NCBI GenBank assembly: GCA_964401845.1
Contig: CAYOAD010000003.1
Location: 1 to 55,525 of the forward strand
DNA: 55,525 bases
Origin: an uncultured Rhodospirillaceae bacterium
GTDB taxonomy: Bacteria > Pseudomonadota > Alphaproteobacteria > UBA2966
Direction: 5' to 3'
Shown: positions 17,970-33,330 of the stretch, one piece after another
Layout: each line of letters begins with the position of its first letter
How positions within the stretch are numbered: the first letter of the stretch is position 1
Notes under the pieces: generated by a model
What the model saw: the letters and a program-made list of their open reading frames with translations, nothing else
Databases searched by the model: none
Told to the model about the DNA's origin: nothing
Made by a program: the position numbers and the translations under genes

Positions 17970-18778
17970 GTCTCTGCTCCCAATTTCCGTTGCGCCCAGC
18001 CGATCATGTCGCCGAGGGCGCCTTTCAAGATGTCTCCGATCTTCGCCGCCTCGGCCTCAAGATAGGTCCAGGGCGGCGTTTCCTCCATGTAGGCGCGTTG
18101 CGCCAATTCAAGCTGCAGGGCGTGAACGTTAGCGGCCGGGTCGCCGTAATGCCGCGTGATCCAGCCGCCCTTGAAGCGGCCGTTGACCACCGTGGTCAGG
18201 CCGGCCGCTGCGTGGCAGGCGTCGCTGAGAATGTCCGCCATCGCCGGGTGGCATGAAGCACCGTCGTTGCTGCCGATATTGAAGTCCGGCAGCCGGCCGT
18301 CGAACAGGCGCGGCACGGCCGAACGGATCGAATGGCAGTCGAACAACAAGGCATAGCCGTGGCGCTTGACGGTCTCCCCGATGAGCCCGGCCAGCGCCTC
18401 GTGATAAGGAGTGTAGTAGGCTTCGATACGGCGTTTGATTTCGGCCTCGGCGGGTTCCGCTCCGTCGCGGTAGATCTGCGTGCCGTCGAACGTCGTCGTC
18501 GGGCACAGGCCGGTGGTGGCCTGGCCGGGATAAAGCGAAGCGCCTGATGGGTCCCGGTTGAGGTCGATGACGTAGCGCGACAGCTTGGCCTGCACGACAT
18601 TGGCGTCGAAGTCACCGTGAAAGCCATAAAGCTTTTCGATCCACCAGTCGGTGTCGGCGATGCCGCGGCCTTCCGCGTTCAGCTGCTCTTCCACCTCAGG
18701 CGTCAGCGCCCGGCCGCAATGGGGCATGCTGAGGATCAGGGGCGCCGTACCCCGGTGGATTTCGACGACGTCGCTCAC
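17966..18778 (-). CDS. hutG: N-formylglutamate amidohydrolase
   Basis: Homologous part starts [25 protein letters not shown] (18778..18776) overlaps the hutI TGA as GTGA. The listed start at 18982 lies inside hutI. Confidence 0.85.
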
Positions 18779-19986
18779 GCGCCGTTCCTGATGCGTTGGT
18801 GCAGCGGGTTGAAGCCGATGGCGTAGCTCAATTCCGCCGGATGCTCGATATCCCAGATCGCCAGATCGCAGGCCTTGCCCGGCTCGATCGTACCGACCTC
18901 GTCCTGCAGGCCCAGCGCGCGGGCGCCATGGCGGGTAACCCCCGCCAGGGCCTCTTCCGGCGTCAGGCGGAACAGCGTGCACGCCATGTTGAGCACGAGC
19001 AGCAGCGATCCCATGGGCGAGGAGCCCGGGTTACTGTCGGTGGCCAGCGCCATCGGTACGCCGTGGCGGCGGAACAGGTCGACCGGAGGCACGGTCTCAT
19101 CGCGCAGGAAATAGAAAGCGCCCGGCAGCAACACCGCCACCGTGCCGGCCCCCGCCATCGCCACGACCCCTGCCTCGTCGACGTATTCCAGATGGTCGGC
19201 GGACAGCGCGCTGAACTCGGCCGCCAGAGCCGCACCACCCAGATTGCTGAGCTGTTCAGCGTGGAGCTTGACGGGCAGTCCCAACGCCTTCGCGGCCTCG
19301 AACACCCGGCGGGTCTGTTCGTTGGAAAATCCGATGCCCTCGCAGAAGGCGTCGACGGCGTCGGCCAGGCCTGCGCTATGCGCAGCGGGAAGCTGGCTGT
19401 CGCAGACATCCCCGATATAGGCGTCCGAATCGCCCTCCGCCTCCGGCGGCAGGGCATGGGCACCGAGAAATGTCGTTTTGATTAGAACGTCCCGTTCGGT
19501 GCCCAGCGCCCGCGCGGTGCGCAACATCTTGCATTCGGTTTCGGCATCGAGGCCGTAGCCCGATTTGATTTCGATCGTCGTCACACCATCGGCGATCAGA
19601 CTGTCGAGCCGGGGCAACGCGGCCTGAACAAGCGCCGTCTCGCCGGCTTCGCGTGTGGCTGCCACGGTCGAAACGATACCGCCGCCGGCTTTTGAAATTT
19701 CCTCGTAGGAAGCGCCCTTGAGGCGCTGCTCGAATTCGGTTGCGCGGTTACCGCCGTAAACCAGGTGGGTGTGGCAGTCGACAAGACCCGGTGTGATCCA
19801 GCGGCCCTCGACGTCAACCGTGGAGTGCGCGGACATCGCCGGCGCTTCGGCTTCGAGGCCTGCCCAGGCGATACGGCCGTCCTTGGCGGCGATCAGTCCG
19901 CCTTCGACGGCGCCGTAGCCTTCGCGCGCAGGATCCATCGTCGCGAGGCGGGCGTTTTTCCAGATTTTGTCGACGGCAACGGTCAT
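18775..19986 (-). CDS. hutI: Imidazolonepropionase
   Basis: Starts [17 protein letters not shown]; contains [13 protein letters not shown] and other amidohydrolase metal motifs. ATG at 19986. Confidence 0.93.
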
Positions 19987-20006
19987 CGGTCCATCCCCCA
20001 ATTCAT

Positions 20007-20018
20007 TTGTATATACAA
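20007..20018. promoter_or_regulatory. Candidate HutC operator 1, perfect palindrome
   Basis: TTGTATATACAA contains TGTA-N2-TACA, the HutC-type GntR motif as I recall it. It lies in the AT-rich hutI/hutF divergent spacer. Confidence 0.65.
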
Positions 20019-20044
20019 TTAGAATGGACAGGAGGCAAGCTTTT

Positions 20045-20056
20045 TTGTATAGACAA
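20045..20056. promoter_or_regulatory. Candidate HutC operator 2, one mismatch
   Basis: TTGTATAGACAA, 38 nt from operator 1 and immediately upstream of the hutF ATG (20060). Confidence 0.55.
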
Positions 20057-20059
20057 TAC

Positions 20060-21430
20060 ATGCCCGCCCAAACGCGCCTTCATTTCGACCACGCCCTGCT
20101 GCCCGGCGGCTGGGCTCGCGATGTGCTCATCGAAGCCGACGAGGATGGCTGGATCACAAGTGTCAACAGCGGCGCGGCGGCATCCGGGACGGACATGCGG
20201 GGCGGTATTGCCTTGCCCGGCATGCCCAACTGCCACAGCCATGCCTTCCAGCGCGCCATGGCCGGACTGGCCGAAAGCGGCAACCCGGGTGATGACGATT
20301 TCTGGAGCTGGCGCAACGTCATGTACGGCTTCGTTGGCTCGCTGACGCCGCCGGATCTCGCCGCCATCGCCGCCCAGGCCTATGCCGAAATGCTGGAAAG
20401 CGGTTTCACCGCCGTCGCCGAATTTCATTACCTCCACCACGCCCCCGACGGCGGCCGTTACGACGACCCCGGAGAAATGTCGGCGGCGATCGCGGAGGCC
20501 GGGGTGGGTACGGGCATCGGCCTGACCTTCCTGCCCGTCTTCTACGCCAACGGCGGATTCGGCGGGATCGAACCCGGTGACGCCCAACGCCGCTTCATCA
20601 ACTCGGCGGAGGACTTTGGTTTATTGCTCGAACGGGTGCGCGACATCGGCCGGGCGGTCGCTGACGCCGCCGTCGGCATCGCCCCCCACAGTCTGCGCGC
20701 CGTGACGCCTGAGAGCCTGGCTGAGGTGGTCGCACTTGAACCGTCCGGCCCCATCCACATCCACATCGCCGAACAAACCCGCGAGGTGGACGATTGCCTC
20801 GCCTGGTCGGGCGAACGCCCCGTCGAATGGCTGTTCAACCACGCAAACGTCGACCGGCGCTGGTGCCTGGTTCATGCCACGCACCTGACGCGTGGGGAAA
20901 GCGATGCCCTCGGAACAAGCGGCGCGGTGGCGGGGCTTTGCCCGATCACCGAGGCTAATCTGGGCGACGGTATTTTCGACTGCGTCGACTTCATGGCCGG
21001 CGGCGGCCGCCTGGCAATCGGCTCCGACAGCAACGTGCTGATCAGCGTGGCGGAGGAAATCCGCCTGCTGGAATATTCCCAGCGCCTGCGGGACCGGCAG
21101 CGCAACCGGTTGAACCCGCTGGGCGGCTCGACGGGCCGCGCTCTGTTTGGCGCCCTGCTGACCGGCGGGGCGCAAGCCAGCGGACGCCGGATCGGACGGT
21201 TGGAAAATGGCTACCGCGCCGACATCGTATCTCTGGACGCCGGACACCCCGCCCTGGTTGCGCGCGAAGGCGATGGCTGGCTGGACGGCTGGCTGTTTGC
21301 CGCAAATACCAACGTTGTCTCGGACGTCTGGTGCGGCGCCCGCCACGTCGTCAGCGGCGGCCGCCACCGTGATGCCGAAGCCATTGCCCGGCGTTACGCC
21401 GACACCCTGACGAAACTGCTCAAACCATGA
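20060..21430 (+). CDS. hutF: Formimidoylglutamate deiminase
   Basis: [18 protein letters not shown]... with [13 protein letters not shown] amidohydrolase motif. ATG at 20060; the listed ORF start at 19967 overlaps hutI. Confidence 0.9.
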
Positions 21431-22182
21431 CGGCAAAGCGCCAACCCCCAGACGCCTACGGGTTTCCATTGGACGGTCGAGGTCCGGTCTACCGCCAAAT
21501 CCGGCGCGCCATCGCCACGCCGATCCTGGCGGGCAGACTGGCGCCCGGCGCGCGGCTGCCGTCGGAGCATGATTTCATGGATCTATTCGGCGCCTCCCGC
21601 ATGACCGTCAACCGGGCGCTGCAGATGCTGGCGGACGAAGGTCTGGTGGTGCGCCGCCGCCGTCACGGCACCTTCGTCGCCCAACAGGTGTCCGAGCACG
21701 CCGTGATGGAATTGCGCGATATTGCCGACGAGATCGAAGCCACCGGCGCGGCCTACGGCTATGAACTGATCGAACGCAGGGTCGACAAACCGGATGCGGC
21801 GCTGGCCGGAATATTCGCCAACGGCGCGGTCAAATCCGTGTTGCGCCTCACCTGCCGGCACTCCAGCGACGGCGAGCCGGTGCTGATGGAGGAGCGCGCC
21901 ATCAACCTCACCACCGTGCCCGCGGCCCGGAAGGAATCGTTCGAGCAGGAGCCGCCAAACCGCTGGCTGTTGAAGAACGTGCCGTGGTCCCGCGTCGAGC
22001 ATGTGATCGCCGCGGTCAATGCGTCCGCGGGCATTGCCAAGCAACTGGGCATTTCAGCCGGTGATGCCTGCCTGCGGGTGGAGCGCACGACCTGGATGGG
22101 CGAGGGCGCCCTCACCCAGGTCCGGCTGACCTATCCCGGTGAGCGGCACCGCCTGGTGGGCCGGTTCAGCACCGGCCAGTAG
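21427..22182 (+). CDS. hutC: Histidine utilisation repressor, GntR/HutC family
   Basis: PVYRQIRRAI...LPSEHDFMDLFGASRMTVNRALQMLADEGLVVRRRRHGTFV plus a UTRA-like C-terminus. ATGA overlap with hutF. Confidence 0.9.
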   Translation: MTAKRQPPDAYGFPLDGRGPVYRQIRRAIATPILAGRLAPGARLPSEHDFMDLFGASRMTVNRALQMLADEGLVVRRRRHGTFVAQQVSEHAVMELRDIADEIEATGAAYGYELIERRVDKPDAALAGIFANGAVKSVLRLTCRHSSDGEPVLMEERAINLTTVPAARKESFEQEPPNRWLLKNVPWSRVEHVIAAVNASAGIAKQLGISAGDACLRVERTTWMGEGALTQVRLTYPGERHRLVGRFSTGQ

Positions 22183-22184
22183 GG

Positions 22185-23276
22185 TCAAAGCGCGGCCGTC
22201 AGAATCTCCAGGACGCGATCGACGTCGCGGGTCTCGCCAATGGTGATGCGCAGGCTGCCGTTGCCGCCGGGCCAGGGCATGGGTTGGACGAGGATGCCGC
22301 CCGACGCCAACGCATCGGCAAATTCCGCCGCGGGCTTGGGCGCCAGCGCCGTCAGGAAATTCGCCTGGCTGGGCAGGGGCTCGAACCCCAGATCCCGCAA
22401 TCCCTGAGCCAGACGCTGCCGCTGCGCCAACAAATCGCTCAGTGTTTCCTGCAGATAAGCTTCGTCCTTCATCGCCGCCACCGCGCCGGCCAGACCGATG
22501 CGGTTGATGTTGAAATTGCCCCGCAGCTTCCAAAAAGCGTCGCGCAATTCGGTGTCGCTGGTGAAAGCATAACCCACGCGCAACCCCGCCATGCAATAGG
22601 CCTTGGAGAACGTACGCGTGACCACCCACGGACCGGCGCGTTCCGCCAACAGGGAAAGAATGTTGGCATATCCTTCGGCGGCGGCGAATTCGTGATAGGC
22701 CTCGTCCACCACCAGCAGGCAGTCCGCCGGCACGCCTTCGACGGCGGCGATCAAATCGTCCTTGCCGATCGCCGCGCCGGTCGGGTTGTTGGGGGTGCAG
22801 ACGTAGAACAGCCGGGTCTTGTCCGTCACTGCCGCCAGCATGGCGGGGATGTCGTTGGCGCCGTCGGCGCGGACCGGCACCTCAACGATGCGGCCGCCCG
22901 CAACGGCCACTCCTTTGGCACAGGTTGGAAAGGTCGGCGCGGGAAAGACCGCTTCGTCACCCGGCTCCAGGGCGATGGCCGCCGCCATGGTCAACAATTC
23001 GCCGCTGCCGTTGCCGAAGCTGATGCGGTCCGCCGGCAGGCCCGAGCGCTCGGTCAGCAATGACGCCAGCGCCGAACAGCCGTGATCGGTGTAGGCCTGG
23101 GCCTGCTGCAAGGCGCTCGCCATGGCGGTCAGGGCTTCGGGCGACGGCGGCAGCAGCGATTCGTTGAGGTTGAGCCGGCGCACATTGGAAGCGGGCCGGC
23201 AATCCGGTTCAGCGATCTCCGGCGGCTTTGCGATACTGAGGTCTGCGATACGCCGGTTGTGAACCGAAGCGCTCAT
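22185..23276 (-). CDS. Histidinol-phosphate/aromatic aminotransferase family (class I/II PLP) protein
   Basis: Motifs LNLNESLLPPSP, NPNNPTG-like CTPNNPTG, and TFSKAY PLP lysine. ATGA overlap with the upstream gene. Confidence 0.8.
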   Translation of the reverse strand: MSASVHNRRIADLSIAKPPEIAEPDCRPASNVRRLNLNESLLPPSPEALTAMASALQQAQAYTDHGCSALASLLTERSGLPADRISFGNGSGELLTMAAAIALEPGDEAVFPAPTFPTCAKGVAVAGGRIVEVPVRADGANDIPAMLAAVTDKTRLFYVCTPNNPTGAAIGKDDLIAAVEGVPADCLLVVDEAYHEFAAAEGYANILSLLAERAGPWVVTRTFSKAYCMAGLRVGYAFTSDTELRDAFWKLRGNFNINRIGLAGAVAAMKDEAYLQETLSDLLAQRQRLAQGLRDLGFEPLPSQANFLTALAPKPAAEFADALASGGILVQPMPWPGGNGSLRITIGETRDVDRVLEILTAAL

Positions 23277-23881
23277 TGGTGCGACCAGTCGTCCGGGTCG
23301 TCGGAGTTGTTGGGCGAAAGGCCGATGATGTCACCCTCGGTCGAACAGCCGAGCCCCAGGACGGTGCGGTTGGCGTACCCGAAGTAGGCCGTCACCTGGT
23401 TGATCTCGAGGATCTCGCCGTCGTCGTACCCCGCCGCCCGCAGCTCATCGACCATGGCTTCGGTCACGGCGGAAGGCGTCAGGGTCAGGGTCTTGGCGTA
23501 GCGCAGCGCGATTATTTCCCTGTCCTCAAGCGGCGCCGCGTCCGGGTCGCCGGCGTCGAGGGCGGCGCGGATGGCGGACGACCGCCCCTCGTCGTCAAGC
23601 AGCCGAACCAGGCCCTGAAAATGATGATCGACGCAGTAGGCACAGCGGTTCAGCAGGCTGACCCAGACGCCGATGGTCTCAAGGAACCACTTCGGCACCT
23701 TGTTGGCGGAATGGTGCAGGACGTACTTGTAGATCGCCATGTGCCCTTCCATGGTGTGGGGGCGCAGGCTGTGCATCATCATGATGTTGTCGACGTTGTT
23801 GTCCGGCCCCTTAACCCGGTCGTAGAGCTTCTTGAGCCGGCCGTCGGCTTCGTCGTAGGGAACGGTTTCGATCCAGGGCAT
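23273..23881 (-). CDS. Carboxymuconolactone decarboxylase / AhpD-like 'peroxidase-related enzyme' family protein
   Basis: 202 aa. The CAYCVDHH CxxC motif is typical of the AhpD/CMD fold. Confidence 0.7.
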   Translation of the reverse strand: MPWIETVPYDEADGRLKKLYDRVKGPDNNVDNIMMMHSLRPHTMEGHMAIYKYVLHHSANKVPKWFLETIGVWVSLLNRCAYCVDHHFQGLVRLLDDEGRSSAIRAALDAGDPDAAPLEDREIIALRYAKTLTLTPSAVTEAMVDELRAAGYDDGEILEINQVTAYFGYANRTVLGLGCSTEGDIIGLSPNNSDDPDDWSHQ

Positions 23882-23896
23882 GGCTGATCCTTCTTT

Positions 23897-25438
23897 TTAC
23901 GCGGACTGATAACTGGGGCCGATGGCCTCGCTGACAAGGTCGCCGAGGACGCCTTGTTTGACAAGCTGCTTGGCGGTTTCGATCTCGGGTGCGAAGAAGC
24001 GGTCATGATCGAACGACGGAACGGCCTCGCGCAACGCGTCATGGGCCGCCCGTAGGGGCTTGGAAGTTTCCAGCGGCACGTGGAATTCAACGGCTTGCGA
24101 GGCAGCCAGCCATTCGATGGCGATCACGGTAAACGCGTTCTCCGCCATGTCGGTGAGGCGGCGGGCTGCATGCGTCGCCATGGAGACATGGTCCTCCTGG
24201 TTGGCAGAGGTCGGGATGCTGTCGACCGATGCGGGATGGGCCAGGCTCTTGTTTTCCGAGACCAGGGCGGCGGAGGTGACCTGCGGCATCATGAAGCCGG
24301 AATTGACGCCGCTCTCCTTGACCAGGAAGGCCGGCAGGCCCGACAGCGAGGCATCCACCAGCATGGCTTGGCGACGCTCCGACAGGGAGCCGATCTCGGC
24401 GATGGCGAGGGCGATGTTGTCAGACGCCAGCGCCACCGGCTCGGCGTGGAAGTTGCCCCCCGACAGCACCTCGCCTTCGTCGGGAAAAACCAGGGGGTTA
24501 TCCGTTACGGCGTTGGCTTCGCTCTCCAAGGTTTGTGCCGCGTAGCCCAACTGGTCGAGGCAGGCGCCCATCACCTGGGGTTGGCAACGCAGACAATAGG
24601 GGTCCTGCACCTTCTCGCAATCGACATGGGATTCGCGGATACGGCTGCCGGCCAGCAGGCGGCGGTAAACGGCCGCCACAGATTGCTGACCCGGATGGCG
24701 GCGCAGTTTGTGGATGCGTTGGGCGAACGGCGTATCGGAACCCTTGCTGGCATCGACGGTGGCGGCGCCCGTGACCAGGGCGGCGCGCAACAGGTCTTCG
24801 GCCGCAAACAGACCCTTGAGCGCCAGCGCCGTCGACACCTGCGTGCCGTTAATCAGGGCCACGCCTTCCTTGGGCCCGAGGCTCAGGGGTTCCAGTCCGG
24901 CGTCGGCCAGCGCCGTTGCGGCGGCGACCAGTTCGCCGTCACGGCGGACCTCGCCGACGCCCAGCATGGCCGACACCATGTGGGCCAACGGCGCAAGATC
25001 ACCCGACGCGCCGACCGAGCCCTTGGCCGGAATGGCGGGATAGAGACCCAAGTTCGCGAAATCGAGCAATTGCTGGATAACCGCCCAGCGCACGCCTGAA
25101 TGACCCTGGGCCAATGCCGTGGCCTTCATGACCATGATCAGACGGACGACGTCGTCGTCCAGCAGCGGGCCGGTGCCGACGCTGTGCGACATGATCAGAT
25201 TACGCTGCAGGTCGGCCACCTTGTCGTCGTCGATGCGGATCTGCGCGAGTTTGCCGAAACCGGTGTTGACGCCATAGATGGCGTCGCCGCCCGCCAGGAG
25301 ATCCGCCACCGCCTTGCGGCAGGCCGTGACGGCGGCGCGGCTCTGATCCGTCAGTTGGACTTGCGGAGCATCGCGCCAAATCAGGCGCCATGTCGCCAAT
25401 CTGACCTCTCCGGGTTCAAGTGTGATTTTTTCGACCAT
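23897..25438 (-). CDS. hutH: Histidine ammonia-lyase
   Basis: Contains [14 protein letters not shown], the Ala-Ser-Gly MIO precursor. ATG at 25438 is preceded by GGGGAGGG. The listed start at 25459 is possible but has no Shine-Dalgarno. Confidence 0.93.
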
Positions 25439-25540
25439 GAAGCCCTCCCCATTCACCAATCATAAGATACAGGCGGGGCAATTTCGCTAGATTGTTCACA
25501 CCTGAACGGCCCGCCCATCACCGACCCGAAGCTCAAAATC

Positions 25541-26881
25541 CTAGTCAATCATCGTGCTCGGTAACAGCAGCGCCAGTTGGGGAAAGGCAATCAGCAGCGC
25601 CAGACCGCCCACCATGGCGAGCCAGAACGGTAGGATACCAACATAGATTTCCTTCATGCTGACGCCGCGGGCGACCCCCTTCACAACGAACACGTTCATC
25701 CCCACGGGCGGACTGATCATGGCCATCTCGATGATGATCACCATGACCACGCCGAACCACACCTTGAGATCGCTGGAATTGCCGCCGACACCGAGCATGG
25801 CGGGTATTTTCGACTGGGCGATGATGGGCAGAACGATGGGCAGGACGAGCACCATCATGGCGAAGCCGTCCAGGAACGTGCCCATGAAAATGAATGTCCC
25901 GAGAATAATGGCAAGCAGGGGAAGCGCGCCGAAATCCAATGTCAGGAGCACATTGGCAAGGCTTTCCGGGATGCCCGTGAGCGCCAGGAAAGGCGAGAAA
26001 ATGTTGGCGCCGATAATGATGAGAAAGATCATCACCGTCGTGCTGACGGTTTGGAAGAGCGCGTTGCTCACCGGCTTCAAAGCCAGGCTTTTGCGGAAGA
26101 ACGCGAATATCATCGCCAGCATGGCGCCGACCGCCGCCGCCTCCACGGGCGTGAAGACGCCGCCGTAGATACCGCCGATCGTGACGACAATGATAAAGAC
26201 GATCGACGTTGCCCGTTTCAGCGCGGCCATTTTTTCCGCCCTGGGCAAGCTCTCCGCTCTCGGGCCGATTTCCGGTTTGATACGGGTGTGGATGAAGATG
26301 GTCAGCAGGAACAAAGTGGCCAGAAGCAATCCCGGAATAACGCCGGCCAGGAACAACCGTCCAATGGATTCCTCGGTAAGGATGGCATAGATGACGAAAC
26401 CCGTGGACGGAGGAATGAGAATACCGAGCGTGCCGCCGGCAGCCACCGCGCCGGCAGCCAGCTTTTTGTCGTAGCCGTAGCGGGCCATTTCCGGCATGGC
26501 GACCCGGCCGATGGTCAGCGCCGAGGCAACGGACGATCCGCTTAAGGCCGCAAAACCGGTGCAGCCGATAACCGTGGCGTGGGCGAGACCGCCCCTTACA
26601 CCGCCGACCCAGGCGTTCGCGGCGGCATACAAATCTCGGCTCATGCCGCAGATCCCGGCGATGTTGCCCATCAGCACGAACAGCGGAATGACGGTCAATT
26701 CAAAAAAAGTCGCGACCGTCCACGCTTCGGACACCAGGCTGGCGACCGCCGCGGGCCAGCTGTTCAGTATGGTCAGACCAATCATCCCCACGACCGTCAT
26801 GGCGATGGCGACGGGTACCCGGACCATCATAAGGACGATCAGCAGGATCAGGCCAAGAACGCCGATAAGAACGGGATCCAT
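25541..26881 (-). CDS. dctM: TRAP transporter large permease subunit (DctM family)
   Basis: 446-aa polytopic membrane protein downstream of the DctQ and DctP genes. Confidence 0.88.
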   Translation of the reverse strand: MDPVLIGVLGLILLIVLMMVRVPVAIAMTVVGMIGLTILNSWPAAVASLVSEAWTVATFFELTVIPLFVLMGNIAGICGMSRDLYAAANAWVGGVRGGLAHATVIGCTGFAALSGSSVASALTIGRVAMPEMARYGYDKKLAAGAVAAGGTLGILIPPSTGFVIYAILTEESIGRLFLAGVIPGLLLATLFLLTIFIHTRIKPEIGPRAESLPRAEKMAALKRATSIVFIIVVTIGGIYGGVFTPVEAAAVGAMLAMIFAFFRKSLALKPVSNALFQTVSTTVMIFLIIIGANIFSPFLALTGIPESLANVLLTLDFGALPLLAIILGTFIFMGTFLDGFAMMVLVLPIVLPIIAQSKIPAMLGVGGNSSDLKVWFGVVMVIIIEMAMISPPVGMNVFVVKGVARGVSMKEIYVGILPFWLAMVGGLALLIAFPQLALLLPSTMID

Positions 26882-26895
26882 ACAACTATTCCCGA

Positions 26896-27441
26896 CTAGT
26901 GATCGGCTGCCGGAGCGGACAATTCAATTGCTTCGTCATCATCGATTTGAAGATCTTCGACGTGTTCACCGGCGATCAGCATGATGATTTCGAGAACAAG
27001 AATGATCGAGTTGAATAGGCAACCGGCGACCAGCACATAGAAAAACGGCTGAAGTGGAATTTCGATCATGTTGGTCGCCTCGCCCATCATTGCGGCATCC
27101 TCCGCACGGATCGAACCTTCCCAGGCCAATATCCCGAATATCCCCAAGGTCAGAAGTTTGACGAAGGCGTGCCGGAGCAGGTTCAGATGGTCGGTGGCAA
27201 ATTCGGGCAACAGGTCGACCACAATGTGGCCGTTCAACCGGCTGGTCAGGGGCAGGGCGAAAAAGAACACCACCACCATGCCCATGGCGATCAAATCCTG
27301 AGCCCCGGTAATCGGACTGGAAAACACGTACCTCAACGTGACGTCGGCGAAGGTAAGCACAACGACGGCGCAGAGTATCACGCCCGAGACGAGGGCCAGG
27401 GCCAGGGATATGCGATCGAATATGTGAAGCAGTCTTCGCAT
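26896..27441 (-). CDS. dctQ: TRAP transporter small permease subunit (DctQ family)
   Basis: 181 aa, 4 TM helices, located between DctP and DctM. Confidence 0.85.
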   Translation of the reverse strand: MRRLLHIFDRISLALALVSGVILCAVVVLTFADVTLRYVFSSPITGAQDLIAMGMVVVFFFALPLTSRLNGHIVVDLLPEFATDHLNLLRHAFVKLLTLGIFGILAWEGSIRAEDAAMMGEATNMIEIPLQPFFYVLVAGCLFNSIILVLEIIMLIAGEHVEDLQIDDDEAIELSAPAADH

Positions 27442-27503
27442 GCTATCCGGCTATCCTCTGTCCTGGCCCTATCCCGTTTTTTTTGGCGAGCGGGATCGTC
27501 CAC

Positions 27504-28514
27504 CTAATCGTTCATCGCGTTGATGATCTCGCCGGCGGGAATGCCCTTGCCTTCGAACTCGGCAACCAGCCCGCTCACCGCTTTGGCGGCCAAGGCATCG
27601 AACTTCTTCCGGTTTTCCGGCGTCAGCGCGATGACCTGCTTGCCTTTGCCCTTGGCGAAAATACCAAGCGCTTTCTTGCCGAAGTTCTCCAAGCCCTTGG
27701 ACGCGCGCAGACTGAGATCAAGACCGGTGAGACTGTCGAGGGCCGCCTTCTCACTGGCTGAAAGTTCATCATAGGCGTCCTGGTTCATGGTCAGAAATAT
27801 CTCCGTGACCATTTCCGGCATTCCGGTGGTGACGAACATGGTCGGCTCGACCAACTTGAAGATCAACAGGGAATCGGCGCCCATGAGAGCGGCGTCCACG
27901 ACGCCCGTGCTCATGGAAGTATAGACCTTGGTGGCCGGCATCAGGACCGGTGTTGCGCCGTAAGCCTTGACGACCGCCGCGGCCGATTTGGACGGAACAC
28001 GCACTTTCATGCCCTTCAGATCGGCGGGCGAGTGAACCGGTTTCTTGGCGCTCATGATCACCGCGGGCGCCGTTGCGAAGGCCGCCAGGGGGCGGGTCCC
28101 GCGGTATTCGGCACGCAGGTACTTGTCCATCACCTTCCAGATTTTCCGGGTGGCATCTTCCGGATTGCTGGCGACACCCGGCAGTTCGACGATCAGGTTG
28201 CGGGGGAACAACGGCGAGGTATAGCCCTGCAGTCCGTAACTGATTTCGGCAATCCGTTTCCGGGCACGTTGGTACTGTTCGACCGGACCCTTTCCCAACT
28301 CACCGGACGCATACACCTTGATTTTCACCGAGCCGTTCGTGGCGGCCGAAAGATCATCGGCCAGCTTCAGAAAGATCGGCTTGTGGAGGACGTAGATCGG
28401 CGGCACGAAGCTCGCCAGCTTCAGGGTTTTCTCCGCCGCGGCCGGGGTTGCAGCGGCAGCAACGGCCAGGGCGACGACACCTGCCATCCAGACCAAGAAC
28501 TTTGGCGTTTTCAT
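27504..28514 (-). CDS. dctP: TRAP transporter substrate-binding protein (DctP family), signal peptide
   Basis: 336 aa, signal peptide ending AAATPAAA, DctP-like pattern. First gene of the minus-strand operon. Confidence 0.85.
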   Translation of the reverse strand: MKTPKFLVWMAGVVALAVAAAATPAAAEKTLKLASFVPPIYVLHKPIFLKLADDLSAATNGSVKIKVYASGELGKGPVEQYQRARKRIAEISYGLQGYTSPLFPRNLIVELPGVASNPEDATRKIWKVMDKYLRAEYRGTRPLAAFATAPAVIMSAKKPVHSPADLKGMKVRVPSKSAAAVVKAYGATPVLMPATKVYTSMSTGVVDAALMGADSLLIFKLVEPTMFVTTGMPEMVTEIFLTMNQDAYDELSASEKAALDSLTGLDLSLRASKGLENFGKKALGIFAKGKGKQVIALTPENRKKFDALAAKAVSGLVAEFEGKGIPAGEIINAMND

Positions 28515-28642
28515 GTCAATTTCCTCTCCATGTTTGAGAATTCCGCGGGGGTACCAACCAAATCAGACATTAACTATTGACCCGATCCCATCAATTGGTG
28601 TTTCATTATGTGAACAACTTGACCACATAGTGAGACAGAAAA

Positions 28643-29461
28643 TTGTCTGGAGTCAACACCCAAGTGCGCGCCGGCGTCGGACTTTTGTCCAAGGCCTTTC
28701 AGATTCTCGACCTCTTCCAGCCCGAATCACCGGCTTGGTCGCAGGCCGAACTGGTGCGGGCGACCGGTCTCAACCGCTCGACCATGAACCGGCTGGTGCG
28801 TTATCTGTCGGAGTGCGGCTACCTCGCCCTGATTGAGCAAACGGGCCGTTATTCATTGGGTCCCGCCGCCATCGACCTGGGCCGCCGCGCGGCAGCCAGC
28901 TTCGACCTGCGTGAAATCTGCCAACCCGTATTGGAGCGTCTGGCGGCGGAAACGGAGGAGACCATTATCCTCACGGCGCACAACGAAGCCGATGACACCG
29001 TCGTCTGCGTCGATCAGATCGAAAGCCGCCGGGGCGGCCTGCGGGTCTTCCAGCAGATCGGCACGACCCTGCCGCTGCACGCCGGCGCATCGCCGAAGGC
29101 GGTCCTGGCGGCACTGCCCGAGGAAGATCGCGACCGCTACGTCTCGAAATCGCTGGATGCCCTGACCGCACACACGATCGTCAACGAGATTGCCCTCAGA
29201 ACCGACATGGAACGCACCATCGACCGGGGATTCGCCATTTCGCGGGAGGAGACATATGAAGGTGTCGTCGGCATAGGCGCCGCTTTTACCGGACCGAACG
29301 GGCGGCCTTTGGGTAGTGTCGCCATCGCCGGTCCCATGCAGCGCATATCGCAGGAACAAATCGACCGCTACGGCGAGCTGCTGCTGGCGGCGGCGGCCGA
29401 AATTGAAGGCCGCGTTAGGGGGCGGTCCGCGCAACCGGATGACGAGGGGGTTGCGGCATGA
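28643..29461 (+). CDS. IclR family transcriptional regulator
   Basis: HTH plus IclR effector domain (LLSKAFQILDLF...WSQAELVRATGLNRSTMNRLVRYL). The TTG start at 28643 is uncertain; GTG at 28664 is also possible. Confidence 0.85.
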   Translation: MSGVNTQVRAGVGLLSKAFQILDLFQPESPAWSQAELVRATGLNRSTMNRLVRYLSECGYLALIEQTGRYSLGPAAIDLGRRAAASFDLREICQPVLERLAAETEETIILTAHNEADDTVVCVDQIESRRGGLRVFQQIGTTLPLHAGASPKAVLAALPEEDRDRYVSKSLDALTAHTIVNEIALRTDMERTIDRGFAISREETYEGVVGIGAAFTGPNGRPLGSVAIAGPMQRISQEQIDRYGELLLAAAAEIEGRVRGRSAQPDDEGVAA

Positions 29462-30444
29462 AGTGCTGGCAATCGGGTGACAAACCCGGCGTTGAAGCGC
29501 TTGCCCTGATCGAGGCGGAAGCGCCGGGTCCGACGAAGCGGGAAATGGTCGTCGAAGTCCACGCCGCGGCGCTTAATTTTTCCGATCTTCTGATGATCGA
29601 CGACAGCTATCAAATCAAGCCGCCGCGCCCATTCACGCCCGGCCAGGAGGTTGCCGGCGTGGTGGTTTCGGCGCCCGATGATTGCCCCTGGGCACCAGGC
29701 GACCGCATTGCCAGCAAAGTACTCTGGGGCGGCTTTGCCGAGTTCGCCCGCGTGCGCACCGACATGGCGATCGCCATCCCCGACGGGGTCGATTTCGCCA
29801 AGGCCGTGGCGCTACCCGTGGTCTACACGACATCGATGATCGCGCTCACCGAATGCGCCGACGTGCGGGAAGACGACTGGGTTCTGGTCCATGCCGCCGC
29901 CGGCGGCGTCGGATTGGCCGCGGTGGAAATCGCCCACGCAAAAGGGGCGAAAGTCATCGCCACGGCGGGCAGCGAGGAAAAACTGGCGCTCGCCCTGGCC
30001 CACGGTGCGGATGAAGGTATCGATTACAAGTCGGCCGATTGGGTTGCATCCGTCAAGGAAATCACCGAGGGCCGTGGCGCCGACCTCATCGTCGATCCCG
30101 TCGGCGGCGAGATCGCGGAAAAGAGCCTGCGCTGCATCGCCCGCGACGGCACCTTGCTGGTGGTCGGCTTCGCCTCCGGCGACATCCCGAAACTCGCGGG
30201 TCATCTATTGTTGCTGAAGCGAGCGTCGGCCAAGGGAGTCTACTGGGACCACGATCATGACGGCCCGATGATCGAACGCGCAACGGCTGAACTCACCGAC
30301 ATGCTGGTGGCCGGCGCCATAAATCCCGTGGTCATAGACCATTATGGATTGGAAGATCTGCCCCGGGCGCTGGCCGACCTCGGTACGCGTGGCTCGGTTG
30401 GGAAACTGGCCCTGCGTCTTGGCGGCCAAGGAGGAGAGGCATGA
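29458..30444 (+). CDS. NADPH:quinone oxidoreductase-like medium-chain dehydrogenase/reductase
   Basis: MDR pattern with VHAAAGGVGLAAVEIAK Rossmann motif. ATGA overlaps on both sides. Confidence 0.8.
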   Translation: MKCWQSGDKPGVEALALIEAEAPGPTKREMVVEVHAAALNFSDLLMIDDSYQIKPPRPFTPGQEVAGVVVSAPDDCPWAPGDRIASKVLWGGFAEFARVRTDMAIAIPDGVDFAKAVALPVVYTTSMIALTECADVREDDWVLVHAAAGGVGLAAVEIAHAKGAKVIATAGSEEKLALALAHGADEGIDYKSADWVASVKEITEGRGADLIVDPVGGEIAEKSLRCIARDGTLLVVGFASGDIPKLAGHLLLLKRASAKGVYWDHDHDGPMIERATAELTDMLVAGAINPVVIDHYGLEDLPRALADLGTRGSVGKLALRLGGQGGEA

Positions 30445-31643
30445 GCGGCAATAACATTCTTTCCGGTATCCGTATCCTCGATCTCAGTCGCGTCATGTCG
30501 GGACCGTTCTGCACCTCGATGCTGGCCGACCTCGGCGCCGAAGTGATCAAGATCGAGTTGCCGGTACATGGTGACGAGGCGCGCTCATTCGGCCCCTACC
30601 GCGACGGGGAGAGCACCTACTTCATGCTGCTCAACCGCGACAAAAAAAGCGTCACGGTCGATATGAAAAGCGATGAGGGCCGGGCCTTGATCAACACCCT
30701 CATTCCCAAATGCGACGTGCTGGTGGAAAATTTCCGTCCCGGAGTCACGAAACGTCTAGGCCTTGACTGGGAGGCCGTTCACGCCCTCAACCCGGCGATG
30801 ATCTACGCCAGCATTTCGGGCTTCGGGCAGGAAAGTCCGCTGGCCAACTGGCCCGCCTTCGACCTCGTGATCCAGGCCATGACCGGTCTGATGAGCCTGA
30901 CCGGCCCCAAGGGCGGACCGCAGACGGCGGTCGGTGAGTCGGTGGCCGACGTCTGTACCGGCATGTTCGCCGCTTTCGGCATCATGGCCGCTCTGTTCGA
31001 CCGGGAGCGCAACGGCAACGGGCGCCACCTCGACATCGCCATGCTCGATTCCATGATGGCCATGCAGCTCACCGGTCTCGCCCGCCAACTCTATTTCGAC
31101 GACACGCCGAAGCCCGTCGGCAACCGCCATCCCGTAACATATCCGGTTGACACCTTCCCGACGACCAGCGGCGACATCGTCATGGTGTGCTTTTCCGATG
31201 CCGCGTTCCGGGCATTGGGTGAGCTGATGGGCGACGACGGCCTTGCCGACAATCCCAAATTCAAAACCAACGCCGACCGCAATACGAACGAGGAAGAATT
31301 GCGGGCTTTGATCAGTGCCTGGTCCTCCCGGCTTACCCAGGACGAAGTCATCGAACGACTTCTCAAAGCCCGCATCCCCGCCGCGCCGGTGTGGAACCTC
31401 AAACAATTGGTCGAACACGAGCACACGACAGCGCGCGGTCTGGTCGTCGAGGGCGTTCACGAGACATTCGGCAGCGTCCCCCTGGTCCGCCAGCCGGTGA
31501 AATTTTCCGATGTCGGCGGCGAAGGACCGGCCGGCGCGCCCACGACGCCGCTCCTCGGTGAACACACGGACGCCGTCCTTGGCGATTTGGCCGGCCTGTC
31601 GGCCGATGAAATCGCCGCCTTGAGATCGAAAAACGCCATTTGA
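30441..31643 (+). CDS. Family III (CaiB/BaiF) CoA-transferase
   Basis: [32 protein letters not shown]-terminus is typical of the family. 400 aa. Confidence 0.88.
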
Positions 31644-31659
31644 TGGGAAAGCCCACGAT

Positions 31660-33330
31660 ATGACGACAGCCGCAAACCGCCGCGTGGTCCGGTCCCCCCG
31701 GGGTCCTGAACTGAACGCCAAGAGCTGGCAGACCGAAGCGCCGCTTCGCCTGATGATGAACAACCTCGATCCCGACGTGGCCGAACGTCCGGAAGAGCTG
31801 GTGGTGTACGGCGGCATCGGCCGTGCCGTGCGCAACTGGGAGAGCTTCGACCGCATGGTGGCGATGCTCAAGGAACTGGAGGACGACGAGACGCTGCTGG
31901 TGCAATCGGGCAAACCGGTCGGCGTCTTCAAAACCCATGACCGGGCGCCGCGCGTGCTGATCGCCAACGGCAACCTGGTACCCAACTGGGCCAACTGGGA
32001 AACCTTCAACGAACTCGACCGTCAGGGTCTGATGATGTACGGCCAGATGACGGCGGGTTCATGGATCTATATCGGCAGCCAAGGCATCGTCCAGGGCACC
32101 TACGAGACGTTTTCCGAAATCGGGCGACGGCATTTCAACGCGGACCCGACGGGCAAGCTCGTCGTCACCGCCGGTCTCGGCGGCATGGGCGGGGCGCAGC
32201 CGCTGGCCGCCACCATGGCGGGCTTCAACGCCATCGTCGTCGAGTGCCAGCGCCATAAAATCGATTTCCGCCTGCGCACCGGCTACCTCGATACCCATGC
32301 CGAAAATCTCGATGAGGCCTTGGGCCTAATCGAAGCGGCAAACGCCAAAGGCGAGGCGCTGTCTGTCGGCCTGTTGGGCAACGTCGTCGATGTGTTGGAA
32401 GACATGAAGACCCGCCAGATCGTGCCTGACGTATTGACCGACCAGACCTCGGCCCATGATCCCGCCTTCGGCTACCTGCCCGTCGGCTGGACCGTTGCCG
32501 AATGGGAGGAACGGCGCGAGCGCGATACGGCCGGCGTCAGCGCCGCGGCGAAGGAGAGCATGGCGCGGCATGTTGAGCTGATGCTGTCGTTCGAGCAGAT
32601 GGGCAGCATCGTACTGGAGTACGGCAACAACCTGCGCGCCATGGCGCGCGACGCCGGCGTCGAGGACGCCTTCCAGTTCCCCGGCTTCGTCGAAGCCTAC
32701 GTGCGGCCGCTGTTCTGCGAGGGCAAGGGGCCGTTCCGCTGGCTGGCGCTGTCAGGCGATCCTGAAGACATCTTCAAGACCGACCAAAAGGTGCGCGAAC
32801 TGCTGCCCGACGATACCTTCCTGCACAACTGGCTGGACAAGGCGCAGAAACACATCTCCTTCCAGGGCCTTCCCGCGAGGATCTGCTGGGTCGGTCTCGG
32901 TGACCGTCACCGCCTTGGCCTCGCCTTCAACGAGATGGTGCGGAACGGTGAATTGAGCGCGCCTATCGTGATCGGACGCGACCATATGGATTCAGGTTCC
33001 GTCGCCAGTCCGACGCGCGAGACCGAGGGCATGAAGGACGGCTCCGACGCCGTTTCCGACTGGCCCATCCTCAACGCATTGTTAAACGTCGCCAACGGTG
33101 CCACCTGGGTGTCCTTCCACCACGGCGGCGGCGTCGGTATGGGTTACTCGCAGCACGCCGGCATCGCCTTGCTGGCGGACGGCTCCGCCCTGGCCGACGA
33201 ATATCTGGCTAGAACGCTCTGGAACGATCCGGCGACGGGCGTCATGCGCCACGCCGACGCGGGCTACGATATCGCCATTGACTGCGCCCGGCGGCACGAT
33301 CTCAACCTGCCGTTTCTCGGGCCCCGCTAA
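31660..33330 (+). CDS. Urocanate hydratase paralogue (second copy)
   Basis: 556 aa, collinear with hutU at 16290..17969. Motifs [24 protein letters not shown] and [18 protein letters not shown] are all retained. Confidence 0.9.

Follow-up and report, generated by a model that had tools for sequence, protein, structure and literature searches.

The window, by which we mean the whole 55,525-nucleotide stretch of DNA analyzed here, contains two urocanases, one in a hut operon (HutU1) and the other (HutU2) behind genes for a regulator, a reductase-like enzyme and a CoA-transferase. This arrangement raises the question of what such partners could contribute to the breakdown of histidine or urocanate. 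Our literature search found no paper describing a cassette of MDR, CaiB and HutU2 genes. Taken together, the HutU2 clade, the CoA-transferase and the zinc-less reductase suggest that histidine/urocanate breakdown has a CoA-dependent side branch that has not been described so far.

Gene organization of the locus

The four genes lie head to tail on the plus strand. An IclR-family regulator (28643..29461; TTG start, alternative GTG at 28666), which matches PF09339 and PF01614 and reaches no NCBIfam equivalog cut-off, is followed by a zinc-less MDR of the quinone-oxidoreductase/enoyl-reductase type (29458..30444; ADH_N and ADH_zinc_N matches), a family III (CaiB/BaiF) CoA-transferase (30441..31643; full-length PF02515 match, 406 bits) and HutU2 (31660..33330). 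The initial annotation had described all junctions as ATGA overlaps, which holds for IclR/MDR and MDR/CaiB; between the CaiB stop (31641-31643) and the HutU2 ATG at 31660 there is instead a 16-nt spacer. No internal promoter or terminator matches were found in the set, and from this and the overlaps the four genes are probably co-transcribed. The start given for the set, 28515, is simply the first nucleotide beyond the dctP start codon.

Coordinates and strands bear out that the set is divergent from a TRAP/hutH operon on the minus strand. The first gene of that operon encodes a DctP-type TRAP solute-binding protein (27504..28514; PF03480 match), followed by the membrane subunits DctQ (26896..27441) and DctM (25541..26881), for which the pair (25541..27441) matches PF04290/PF06808, and by hutH (23897..25459; TIGR01225, 688 bits against a cut-off of 539), the sole histidine ammonia-lyase match in the assembly. 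On the same strand lie genes, coupled by ATGA, for an AhpD/CMD-fold "peroxidase-related" protein with a CAYC motif (23273..23881; TIGR01926, 92 bits against 81.8) and a HisC-like class I/II aminotransferase (22185..23276; PF00155 match; 250 bits for hisC against a cut-off of 276.6).

The first urocanase copy does sit in a HutC-type hut operon, as had been proposed. HutU1 (16290..17969) is the last gene of hutI-hutG-hutU on the minus strand, with hutG at 17966..18982 and hutI at 18775..20061 as an ORF, opposite hutF (19967..21430 as an ORF) and hutC (21427..22182) on the plus strand; apart from HutU1, this canonical locus spans 17966..22182. TGTA-N2-TACA boxes of the HutC type occur near the hut genes only at 20008-20017 and 20046-20055.

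Two urocanases of different clades

Both copies are full length, each having all three Pfam urocanase domains, and they share 70% identity over 549 residues with no gaps. Against the TIGR01228 cut-off of 375 bits, HutU1 scores 966 and HutU2 909, and these two are the only hutU matches in the 3.88-Mb assembly. The NAD-binding and active-site motifs are kept in both, including GGMGGAQ and residues Y52, Q131, T133, R362, D443 and R455 (P. putida numbering).

The phylogeny suggested by the initial annotation separates them. HutU1 groups with canonical alphaproteobacterial HutU, and HutU2 falls into a monophyletic clade (SH-aLRT 100, stem length 0.19) nested in alphaproteobacterial HutU and far from the thiourocanate-type hydratases. 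Terriglobia HutU2 copies nest within this clade, whereas the canonical HutU of L080, the one Terriglobia genome included for that protein, branches basally. HutU2 proteins from different phyla share 73-83% identity, and their identity to canonical HutU is about 70%. Residues invariant in 35 canonical sequences are replaced in the clade, with P347E in 142/143 and L445M in 143/143 members and further changes S106G/A, M33L and V505A; position 454, an invariant Asn in canonical HutU, is N, T or Y. To judge from these substitutions, HutU2 may be a urocanase with an altered pocket.

All six carrier genomes tested have exactly two hutU genes, a canonical one (937-969 bits) and HutU2 (882-914 bits). 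A single hutI was found in 5/5 carriers; in all three where its position was checked, it adjoins the canonical hutU. Canonical hut genes would take imidazolone propionate made by either urocanase. Each tested carrier has, beside its canonical hutU, a single hutI that can take the HutU2 product onward, and this ties the set to the hut pathway.

Conservation of the cassette

The gene-neighborhood survey that had been called for showed that the order MDR-CaiB-HutU2 (the triad) recurs in every orthologous locus examined, which is more than chance would give. CaiB orthologues are 59-74% identical, followed by a sharp drop to 44% or less. Among the 22 loci with a CaiB at least 59% identical, the MDR gene is directly upstream in all 22 and HutU2 directly downstream in 21, and an IclR orthologue precedes the MDR gene in 16; loci reached via HutU2 have MDR-CaiB upstream in 7/7 cases. 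They are spread over Rhodospirillales, Hyphomicrobiales, Rhodobacterales and Terriglobia, and the carriers include Acidobacteria beside Alphaproteobacteria; most are aerobic marine Alphaproteobacteria and soil Terriglobia. The Terriglobia cassettes are flanked by transposases, and the HutU2 cassette may well be horizontally mobile.

Metagenomic contig L138 has the order hutC, a TGTATATACA box, then hutI-MDR-CaiB-HutU2-aminotransferase, which ties the triad to urocanate-induced hut expression. This contig and the invariance of the triad across phyla uphold the earlier proposal of an operon that works as a unit with the hut pathway. We read the MDR-CaiB-HutU2 module as accessory to histidine/urocanate catabolism and not as a spare hutU. 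Simple redundancy, i.e., an ordinary second urocanase beside two functionally unrelated genes, would suit the high hutU score and the retained catalytic residues, yet it already conflicts with a triad that stays the same in different orders and phyla whereas the genes around it vary, with substitutions fixed at otherwise invariant sites and with a HutU2 that is always extra to the canonical copy, and is highly improbable.

The uptake system beside the constant triad varies between TRAP, TrpX-like ABC and NCS1 types. DctP orthologues (56-64% identity) adjoin it in L006, L015, L016, L023, L024, L089 and L136, and one further locus found through HutU2 has a DctPQM set beside it. The best PDB relatives of DctP, in a search that gives no percent identity, are 7nr2/7nra and 5im2/5i5p (E 1e-29 to 1e-31); we take the former pair to be TRAP binding proteins for aromatic carboxylates.

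Frequent cassette partners are the HisC-like aminotransferase, the AhpD-like CxxC protein, a GlcD-like FAD oxidase and DUF1330. CMD-fold orthologues (68-78% identity) occur in all ABC-type cassettes whose contig reaches far enough. Eleven other cassettes have an aminotransferase orthologue, in most cases 51-69% identical, with the L088 gene at only 39%; in L138 the orthologue (69%) is directly downstream of HutU2. The window's hutH is 66-71% identical to cassette HALs (L087, L089) versus 51-60% to those of canonical hutIHGU operons and is thus of the cassette-associated type.

A candidate operator in the divergent spacer

Two 13-nt half sites, GTYTCAYTATGTG, form an inverted repeat in the dctP/iclR spacer (28600..28636), the first at 28600-28612 on the plus strand and the second at 28624-28636 on the minus strand, 11 nt apart. 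The repeat is a candidate IclR operator, to which the regulator would be expected to bind. The 18 orthologous spacers that we examined have a related element 42-90 nt ahead of the start of the IclR match; L005, L009, L022 and L087 show it most clearly, whereas L015, L016, L024 and L088 have only a weak form. As the paired repeat has its sole occurrence in the whole assembly here, no unlinked gene appears to share the operator-like site.

Chemistry suggested by the MDR and CaiB

The MDR has GQE instead of GHE and an AAGGVG nucleotide motif, its best PDB match is 4EYE, and it scores 215 bits for the PIG3 subfamily against a cut-off of 296.8. Its closest paralogues (42-45% identity) have genes for acyl-CoA ligases, dehydrogenases and crotonases as neighbors. 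In the profile search, CaiB reached no equivalog cut-off. Its nearest paralogue outside the orthologue group (49.5% identity) shares an operon with a HAL-family lyase, a betaine-type ABC transporter, a 3-hydroxyacyl-CoA dehydrogenase and an enoyl-CoA hydratase, accompanied by UTRA regulators; the acrylate that the lyase produces must be what the transferase there takes. Both paralogue contexts make the proposed CoA-ester chemistry on an imidazole-acrylate-type acid plausible.

Our preferred reading, held with neither more nor less than half confidence, is that IclR-MDR-CaiB-HutU2 forms an accessory module, conserved and horizontally mobile, for the CoA-thioester salvage of a urocanate isomer or analogue, serving a specialized urocanase. 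The flanking binding-protein system (TRAP here) would import an imidazole C3-acid that is no substrate for ordinary urocanase, with cis-urocanate as first choice or else another side-chain variant of urocanate. CaiB would make its CoA thioester, the enoyl-thioester-reductase-type MDR would act on the C-alpha=C-beta bond, and CaiB would then free trans-urocanate by moving the CoA onto the molecule that arrives next. HutU2 would hydrate this irreversibly to imidazolone propionate, the single HutI, HutF and HutG of the genome would finish the route to glutamate, and IclR would repress both divergent operons through the inverted repeat. What the substrate is, how the steps are ordered and what the MDR does are inferred; we judge it an even call whether CaiB and MDR work ahead of HutU2, on a thioester related to urocanate, and cis-urocanate as the compound is a tentative and rather unlikely choice. 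We know of no precedent for an MDR as a redox-neutral cis/trans isomerase, and of no gene assigned to a "cis-urocanic acid isomerase". Bacterial activity of that name is cited as Hug et al. 1999 among the references of PMC5988872. Four frequent partners, namely the HisC-like aminotransferase, the CxxC protein of AhpD type, the GlcD-like FAD oxidase and DUF1330, are left unexplained by cis-urocanate.

Alternative readings

Alternatively, CaiB could turn trans-urocanate into urocanoyl-CoA, from which the MDR would form imidazole-propionyl-CoA at the expense of NAD(P)H, and CaiB could recycle the CoA, giving a soluble cai-like urocanate reductase as electron sink or overflow, with HutU2 as the co-expressed oxidative branch. 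All steps are standard for an ER-type MDR and a family III transferase, CoA recycling being known from the CaiB and FldA systems, and the MDR paralogues stand in acyl-CoA contexts. This scheme is nevertheless improbable in our view: aerobic Alphaproteobacteria of the sea and Terriglobia of the soil make up most of the carriers, the transport systems next to the triad work in the import direction, a reductase and a urocanase for one substrate in one operon need special pleading, and the fixed HutU2 substitutions are left without a reason.

We regard as similarly doubtful that HutU2 acts first, on a ring-substituted urocanate (N-methyl or C2), and that CaiB and MDR then process an imidazolone propionate that HutI cannot open. 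The initial annotation had offered a substituted urocanate as its alternative, and the states G106, E322, L327 and E347, common with NCBIfam-verified S-methyl-thiourocanate and thiourocanate hydratases, lend this some support and could mean such a substrate. The variation at position 454 and the cassette-type HALs forming their own subgroup also speak for it. HutU2 nevertheless stays far under the two thiourocanate-type cut-offs while its hutU score is high, and the identities across phyla and to canonical HutU, the triad standing with hutI behind a HutC box in L138 and the lack of any chemistry that seems sensible to us for a CoA-transferase and an ene-reductase on imidazolone propionate count against it.

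Imidazole propionate (dihydrourocanate), the example given earlier, fared worse and is very improbable as the substrate. Its thioester would be made by CaiB and oxidized by the MDR to urocanoyl-CoA, with release of urocanate for HutU2, so that all three core enzymes are used in line. Competitive inhibition of urocanase by imidazole propionate is classical, which would explain a dedicated enzyme, and the nearest solved relatives of DctP (7nr2/7nra) presumably bind aromatic carboxylates. However, the NAD(P)-type MDR is the sole redox enzyme of the minimal cassette (all MDRs known to us use NAD(P)), and the route is thermodynamically implausible because its oxidation of acyl-CoA to enoyl-CoA (E0' near -10 to -100 mV, versus -320 mV for NAD(P)+) would run uphill against some 40-60 kJ/mol. 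None of the loci examined has an acyl-CoA dehydrogenase linked to the triad, and no such gene shares the operator.

Comparison with known systems

In the canonical Hut pathway (HutH, HutU, HutI, HutF and HutG under HutC; Pseudomonas, Brucella), the urocanase belongs to the same family as HutU2, whose product would be the substrate of HutI, and the L138 cassette even sits in a HutC-box operon right after hutI. HutU2 differs in forming a clade of its own, in which P347, L445 and S106 have fixed replacements; it is always an additional copy, is usually controlled by IclR and not by HutC, and has an obligatory linkage to a CoA-transferase and an MDR. To our knowledge, neither of these has a role in any described hut pathway.

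The thiourocanate and S-methyl thiourocanate hydratases of ergothioneine catabolism (NF058530, NF058531) are likewise urocanase paralogues in dedicated operons, specialized for modified urocanate, and share the HutU2 states at 106, 322, 327 and 347. HutU2 scores only 670 and 696 bits against their cut-offs of 930 and 880, keeps Q131, S136, H501 and R455, all four of which are changed in those enzymes, and branches far away, inside canonical HutU.

A family III transferase is also paired with an enoyl-CoA double-bond enzyme in the CoA-recycling enoate systems CaiB/CaiA (carnitine), FldA (aryl-lactate/cinnamate) and AcuN or PrpE with AcuI (acrylate), the reductase being MDR-type in the acrylate system and ACAD-type in the cai system. 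The cassette proteins reach no equivalog cut-off for CaiB, AcuI or YhdH, and we know of no urocanase in these systems and none that feeds the hut pathway. The uncharacterized Rhizobium pRspBT04f operon contains the nearest CoA-transferase paralogue, likewise with a HAL-family lyase and HutC-like (UTRA) regulators; it has a beta-oxidation pair in place of MDR and urocanase, and no urocanase.

For uptake, the window's DctP is of the same family as TarPQM, and its best PDB matches (only at E about 1e-31) are presumably aromatic-acid TRAP binding proteins. TarPQM is a TRAP system for aryl-acrylates (hydroxycinnamates) in Rhodopseudomonas palustris (PMC3610893). Other cassettes replace TRAP with a TrpX-like ABC system or an NCS1 permease.

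Organization of the urocanase loci

The genes listed in the initial annotation were borne out by an ORF listing combined with profile searches. The gene of the canonical urocanase HutU1 (16290..17969) lies on the reverse strand with hutG and hutI, and hutF-hutC is divergent from these on the forward strand. Also on the reverse strand are genes for a HisC-like aminotransferase (22185..23276) and an AhpD/CMD-fold protein with a CAYC motif (23273..23881), followed by the histidine ammonia-lyase (HAL) gene hutH (23897..25459) and the TRAP transporter genes dctM-dctQ-dctP (25541..28514). The forward strand then encodes an IclR regulator (28643..29461), a zinc-less protein of the quinone-oxidoreductase/enoyl-reductase type (MDR; 29458..30444), a family III CoA-transferase (CaiB; 30441..31643) and the second urocanase, HutU2 (31660..33330). 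All junctions of this last set had been described as ATGA overlaps, which is the case for IclR/MDR and MDR/CaiB, but CaiB and HutU2 are separated by a 16-nt spacer. HutU1 and HutU2 align without gaps at 70% identity and are the only hutU matches in the 3.88-Mb, 88%-complete assembly.

Conservation and composition of the cassette

CaiB was chosen as the probe for a survey of one genome per species, because its many paralogues allow its orthologues to be delimited. The scan returned 22 loci at 59-74% identity, followed by a sharp fall to 44% or less. Searches by tblastn with the window's proteins placed MDR directly upstream of CaiB in all 22 loci and HutU2 (73-83% identity) directly downstream in 20 of them; contig L007 stops within the start of HutU2, and the exception, L025, is the locus with the lowest CaiB identity, where an FMO-like gene is present and a urocanase is absent. 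Longest-ORF clustering, which is crude and confounded by antisense ORFs in high-GC DNA, was used only together with tblastn. To avoid circularity, a second survey was seeded from HutU2, whose best 120 database relatives are all at least 74% identical to it; MDR-CaiB was directly upstream in each of the seven relatives for which the contig was fetched. The MDR-CaiB-HutU2 triad is thus the constant core, and the minimal cassette consists of the core and a transporter, usually with IclR. Carriers belong to the Rhodospirillales, Hyphomicrobiales, Rhodobacterales and Terriglobia (Acidobacteriota), with one bin labelled Blastopirellula.

The divergent operon beside the cassette encodes either DctPQM or an ABC system with a TrpX-like binding protein. 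The best solved relatives of the window's TRAP binding protein (including PDB 7nr2/7nra) are presumably aromatic-acid binders. In ABC-type cassettes an AhpD-like gene comes next in every locus extending that far, an aminotransferase gene is present in all of these AhpD-reaching loci except L137, and most ABC-type cassettes have a GlcD-like FAD oxidase gene. HAL genes are found inside the cassettes of the window and of loci L087, L089 and L014, DUF1330 is recurrent in several cassettes, and Terriglobia cassettes, which adjoin transposases, have either an NCS1 permease together with an S9 peptidase or else a divergent HAL-like gene. At 66-71% identity, the window's HAL is closer to other cassette HALs than to canonical ones (51-60%). 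Most simply, the aminotransferase, the GlcD-like oxidase and the cassette-type HAL would form a side module leading from imidazole lactate/pyruvate via histidine to urocanate, a reading that does not account for the AhpD-like protein and DUF1330.

Individual loci showed further features. In a Terriglobia MAG (L050:5994-8782), MDR is followed by a 648-aa ORF fusing the first ~169 residues of CaiB to the last ~420 of HutU2, with an integrase gene upstream; the fusion is probably a cassette-destroying deletion, or an assembly error. The 11-kb contig from the bin labelled Blastopirellula (L006, NVWB01000318.1) carries a complete TRAP-IclR-MDR-CaiB-HutU2 set of alphaproteobacterial type, its HutU2 being 81% identical to that of the window, and represents either a transfer into a planctomycete or a mis-binned contig. 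L136:1-12600 has two TRAP systems, one on each side of the cassette, and, ahead of IclR-MDR-CaiB-HutU2, a gene for a metallo-beta-lactamase-fold protein and a further IclR gene.

Copy number, phylogeny and transfer

Each of five further carrier genomes contained exactly two hutU matches, one canonical (937-969 bits) and one of the HutU2 type (882-914 bits); hutI is single in all five and adjoins the canonical hutU in the three that were checked. Across the class, hutU was present in 40 of 151 genomes representing families, and the HutU2 type only in the window's genome.

The two copies, for which the initial annotation had proposed a phylogenetic comparison, were placed in a maximum-likelihood tree of 86 urocanase sequences rooted with verified thiourocanate-type paralogues. 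HutU2 falls in a distinct clade that unites all cassette-linked sequences and the top database matches (SH-aLRT 100, stem length 0.19) and is nested inside alphaproteobacterial HutU. The second high-scoring hutU copy of genome G108 falls outside this clade, and tblastn with the window's proteins found neither MDR nor CaiB within ~2 kb of it. This alphaproteobacterial genome holds seven urocanase-family genes (loci L107, L119-L124), including a thiourocanate hydratase, S-methyl-thiourocanate hydratases and a tandem pair just below the cut-off (L124); its odd HutU (L119) has A106, G347, M445 and Q444 in the numbering of the alignment to P. putida urocanase, with MDR/CaiB absent nearby.

Terriglobia HutU2 sequences lie inside the HutU2 clade, adjoining an Azospirillaceae sequence, whereas the canonical HutU of the L080 genome, the only such Terriglobia canonical copy in the tree, branches basally. 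This topology implies that the cassette has moved between phyla. IS110-type and DDE transposase genes directly adjoin cassettes at L014:10413-13979, L017:10089-11543 and L015:763-2082, which is consistent with the phylogenetic transfer signal. In PLSDB the best matches were 49.5% for CaiB, 44.8% for MDR and 71% for HutU2 (the level of canonical copies), none of them an orthologue, which gives no support to carriage on known plasmids.

CoA-transferase and MDR

CaiB matches PF02515 (CoA_transf_3) over its full length (406 bits, residues 7-376 of 400) and is akin to dicarboxylate and oxalate-type enzymes at the subfamily level only. Assignment to the YfdE, Frc, succinate-glutarate, mesaconate or CaiB equivalogs was rejected, the best scores being 299, 296, 296, 289 and 113 bits against cut-offs of 522, 442, 750, 700 and 413 bits. 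MDR has ADH_N and ADH_zinc_N domains, with GQE replacing GHE and the catalytic zinc ligands absent, and its AAGGVG is the AxxGxxG nucleotide motif, as in enoyl and quinone reductases. PIG3, AcuI/YhdH acrylyl-CoA reductase and Ccr were also rejected as identities for MDR (215, 100, 67 and 61 bits; cut-offs 297, 297, 440 and 379 bits), and an ESM Atlas look-up returned generic 'NADPH:quinone oxidoreductase' clusters only. Both proteins belong to their superfamilies and to no characterised equivalog.

The nearest MDR paralogues (42-45% identity) sit among acyl-CoA ligase, dehydrogenase and crotonase genes. The nearest CaiB paralogue outside the orthologue group (49.5% identity) is encoded on plasmid pRspBT04f of Rhizobium sp. 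BT04 (L133:1-11000; NZ_CP125651.1, ~444400-455000). Its operon, which has a UTRA (HutC-like) regulator on each side, also encodes an OsmF-like ABC transporter of the betaine type, a HAL-like lyase (at 523 bits slightly short of the HAL cut-off), a 3-hydroxyacyl-CoA dehydrogenase and an enoyl-CoA hydratase. This transferase can hardly do other than activate an aryl-acrylate freed by the HAL-like lyase, and the operon has the look of a beta-oxidation route, not described before, that would degrade the acrylate released from an aromatic or imidazole betaine.

Regulation

Two inverted 13-nt half sites (GTYTCAYTATGTG) occupy 28600-28612 and 28624-28636 of the dctP/iclR spacer. All 18 orthologous spacers examined contain a related element, 42-90 nt upstream of the IclR gene and weak in four of them, and this operator-like element is kept whether the divergent operon is of the TRAP or the ABC type. 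The IclR protein has HTH_IclR and IclR_C domains, and the palindromic putative site is in its own upstream region. No second half-site pair was found in the whole assembly, which fits a predicted IclR repressor controlling this locus alone, and the same scan recruited no unlinked acyl-CoA dehydrogenase or dehydratase through a shared operator. Upstream of hutH, GTGTGAACAAT (25484-25500, reverse strand) shares the TGTGAACAA core with the left operator half (28609-28617) but is followed by no partner half site. It could be a chance match or a weak site for IclR. A promoter/terminator scan of 28400-33600 gave no internal match above shuffles.

The window's HutC-type boxes (TGTA-N2-TACA), at 20008 and 20046, are confined to the hutI/hutF spacer. 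None was found in 28515-28642, before the IclR operon, which in the window thus does not appear as a member of a HutC regulon, and none in front of hutH. Within 16290-25459, the canonical hutIGU/hutFC locus is without its own hutH; the assembly has one HAL gene, the hutH at 23897..25459, which is of the cassette type and lies behind the TRAP genes. With no hutH in the canonical locus and no HutC box before the HAL gene, histidine use in this organism seems to hang on either the operon on the IclR side or an unseen promoter within the 81 nt between dctM and hutH.

In contig L138 (ENA k141_293635), the order is hutF, hutG, hutU, hutC, a TGTATATACA box and hutI-MDR-CaiB-HutU2-aminotransferase, so that a HutC box stands in front of the triad's operon. 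Its HutU2 keeps E347 and M445 and has the canonical Ser at position 106. The triad is here part of a HutC-type hut operon, with predicted co-expression with the canonical hutU, and the gene order and box speak for a function linked to urocanate catabolism rather than plain redundancy. The same contig (L138:1-17689) has three urocanase genes within 17 kb; the third (546 aa, 47% identity to HutU1) is behind its own IclR and adjoins genes for a HutI-like amidohydrolase, a molybdopterin oxidoreductase and an arginase-family protein.

Proposed chemistry

Taken together, the paralogue contexts of CaiB and MDR, the MDR motifs, and the TRAP and TrpX-like binding proteins make an imidazole-acrylate-type acid handled as its CoA thioester the most economical reading. 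We give an even chance to CaiB and MDR acting upstream of HutU2 on a urocanate-related thioester. A linear, self-contained route through all three enzymes to trans-urocanate requires a change at the double bond that is redox-neutral. This leads to cis-urocanate, which we name as a possible though rather unlikely substrate.

cis-Urocanate is a photoproduct of urocanate and not a substrate of ordinary urocanase, and we know of no gene assigned to cis-urocanate isomerase activity. Such an activity is reported for bacteria (Hug et al. 1999, as cited in PMC5988872). CaiB would thioesterify cis-urocanate, and MDR would isomerise the enoyl thioester to trans with no net redox, by transient hydride addition or, alternatively, by reduction and then re-oxidation. 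The dedicated urocanase would draw the equilibrium forward and might itself be insensitive to cis-urocanate. There is a modest chance that the cassette supplies the missing genes for bacterial cis-urocanate utilisation.

The minimal cassette has one redox enzyme, the NAD(P)-dependent MDR. Its use in the reductive direction, on a urocanate-derived thioester, would be chemically easy, but is judged unlikely, as it would put a urocanate-consuming reductase in one operon with a urocanase in mostly aerobic bacteria. A low probability is also given to HutU2 acting first, on a ring-substituted urocanate, which fits the residue states that HutU2 has in common with thiourocanate-type hydratases but leaves CaiB and MDR without sensible chemistry. 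The initial annotation had offered imidazole propionate as an example, which would call for oxidation of imidazole-propionyl-CoA to urocanoyl-CoA. From standard potentials this step is uphill by ~40-60 kJ/mol with NAD(P)+, and an acyl-CoA dehydrogenase for it is neither linked nor shares the operator; the example is therefore very improbable. An imidazole-lactate route of the Fld type was dropped because the required 2-hydroxyacyl-CoA dehydratase is absent, and carnosine/beta-alanine via acrylyl-CoA, glutaconate or mesaconate reduction and reductive carboxylation because no enzyme for them is linked.

Significance

Histidine and urocanate catabolism is treated as a closed textbook pathway without CoA chemistry, and our literature search found no description of the cassette, of urocanoyl-CoA or of a urocanate CoA-transferase. 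We regard the cassette as a mobile accessory to the hut pathway that forms a CoA-dependent branch of it; its existence and conservation are well supported. Members of the HutU2 clade are annotated in databases only as 'urocanate hydratase', yet are obligatorily linked to a CoA-transferase and an MDR of the ene-reductase type. This coupling and the spread between phyla argue for an undescribed branch using an imidazole acid closed to the standard pathway, and are a warning that functional divergence lies concealed under 'second hutU' annotations. There is now a concrete, testable context for three uncharacterised enzyme subfamilies, two types of binding protein and one candidate IclR operator, and the cultured carriers include Parasedimentitalea maritima, Nitratireductor pacificus, Hoeflea sp. 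and Flavimaribacter sediminis. Candidate substrates such as cis-urocanate and imidazole propionate have biological activity as metabolites in animals, and enzymes removing them would be of wider interest. If the cis-urocanate route holds, metabolism derived from histidine would gain its first CoA-dependent step, and the MDR superfamily a type of reaction new to it.

Comparison of HutU2 with canonical and thiourocanate-type hydratases

HutU2 matches the three urocanase Pfam domains (PF17391, PF01175 and PF17392) end to end, scores 909 bits against TIGR01228 (cut-off 375) and aligns without gaps to P. putida urocanase (PDB 1UWL/1UWK) at an offset of +2. In a comparison of 143 HutU2-clade with 35 canonical HutU sequences, the GGMGGAQ NAD motif and the equivalents of Y52, E44, Q131, T133, R362, D443, H444 and R455 are invariant in both groups; among these, Y52, Q131, T133, R362, D443 and R455 of P. 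putida are taken as the substrate-binding or catalytic residues. The HutU2 clade breaks other canonical invariants, with P347E in 142 of 143 sequences and L445M, two residues past D443, in all 143. Further replacements at canonical-invariant sites are S106G/A, M33L, V505A, D322E, I327L, Q329A and W169L; those at 33, 347, 445 and 505 occur in at least 97% of the clade, and G or A at position 106 in 95%. HutU2 thus departs from the canonical residues S106, P347, L445, V505 and M33, which is evidence for a putatively altered pocket or altered inhibitor sensitivity.

The G106, E322, L327 and E347 states are common to HutU2 and the thiourocanate/S-methyl-thiourocanate hydratase paralogues that pass the NCBIfam cut-offs. 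True members of NF058530 and NF058531 from genomes G108 and G047 score 891-1038 bits; HutU2 reaches 670 and 696 bits, far under the respective curated cut-offs of 930 and 880, and its identification as a thiourocanate-type hydratase is ruled out.
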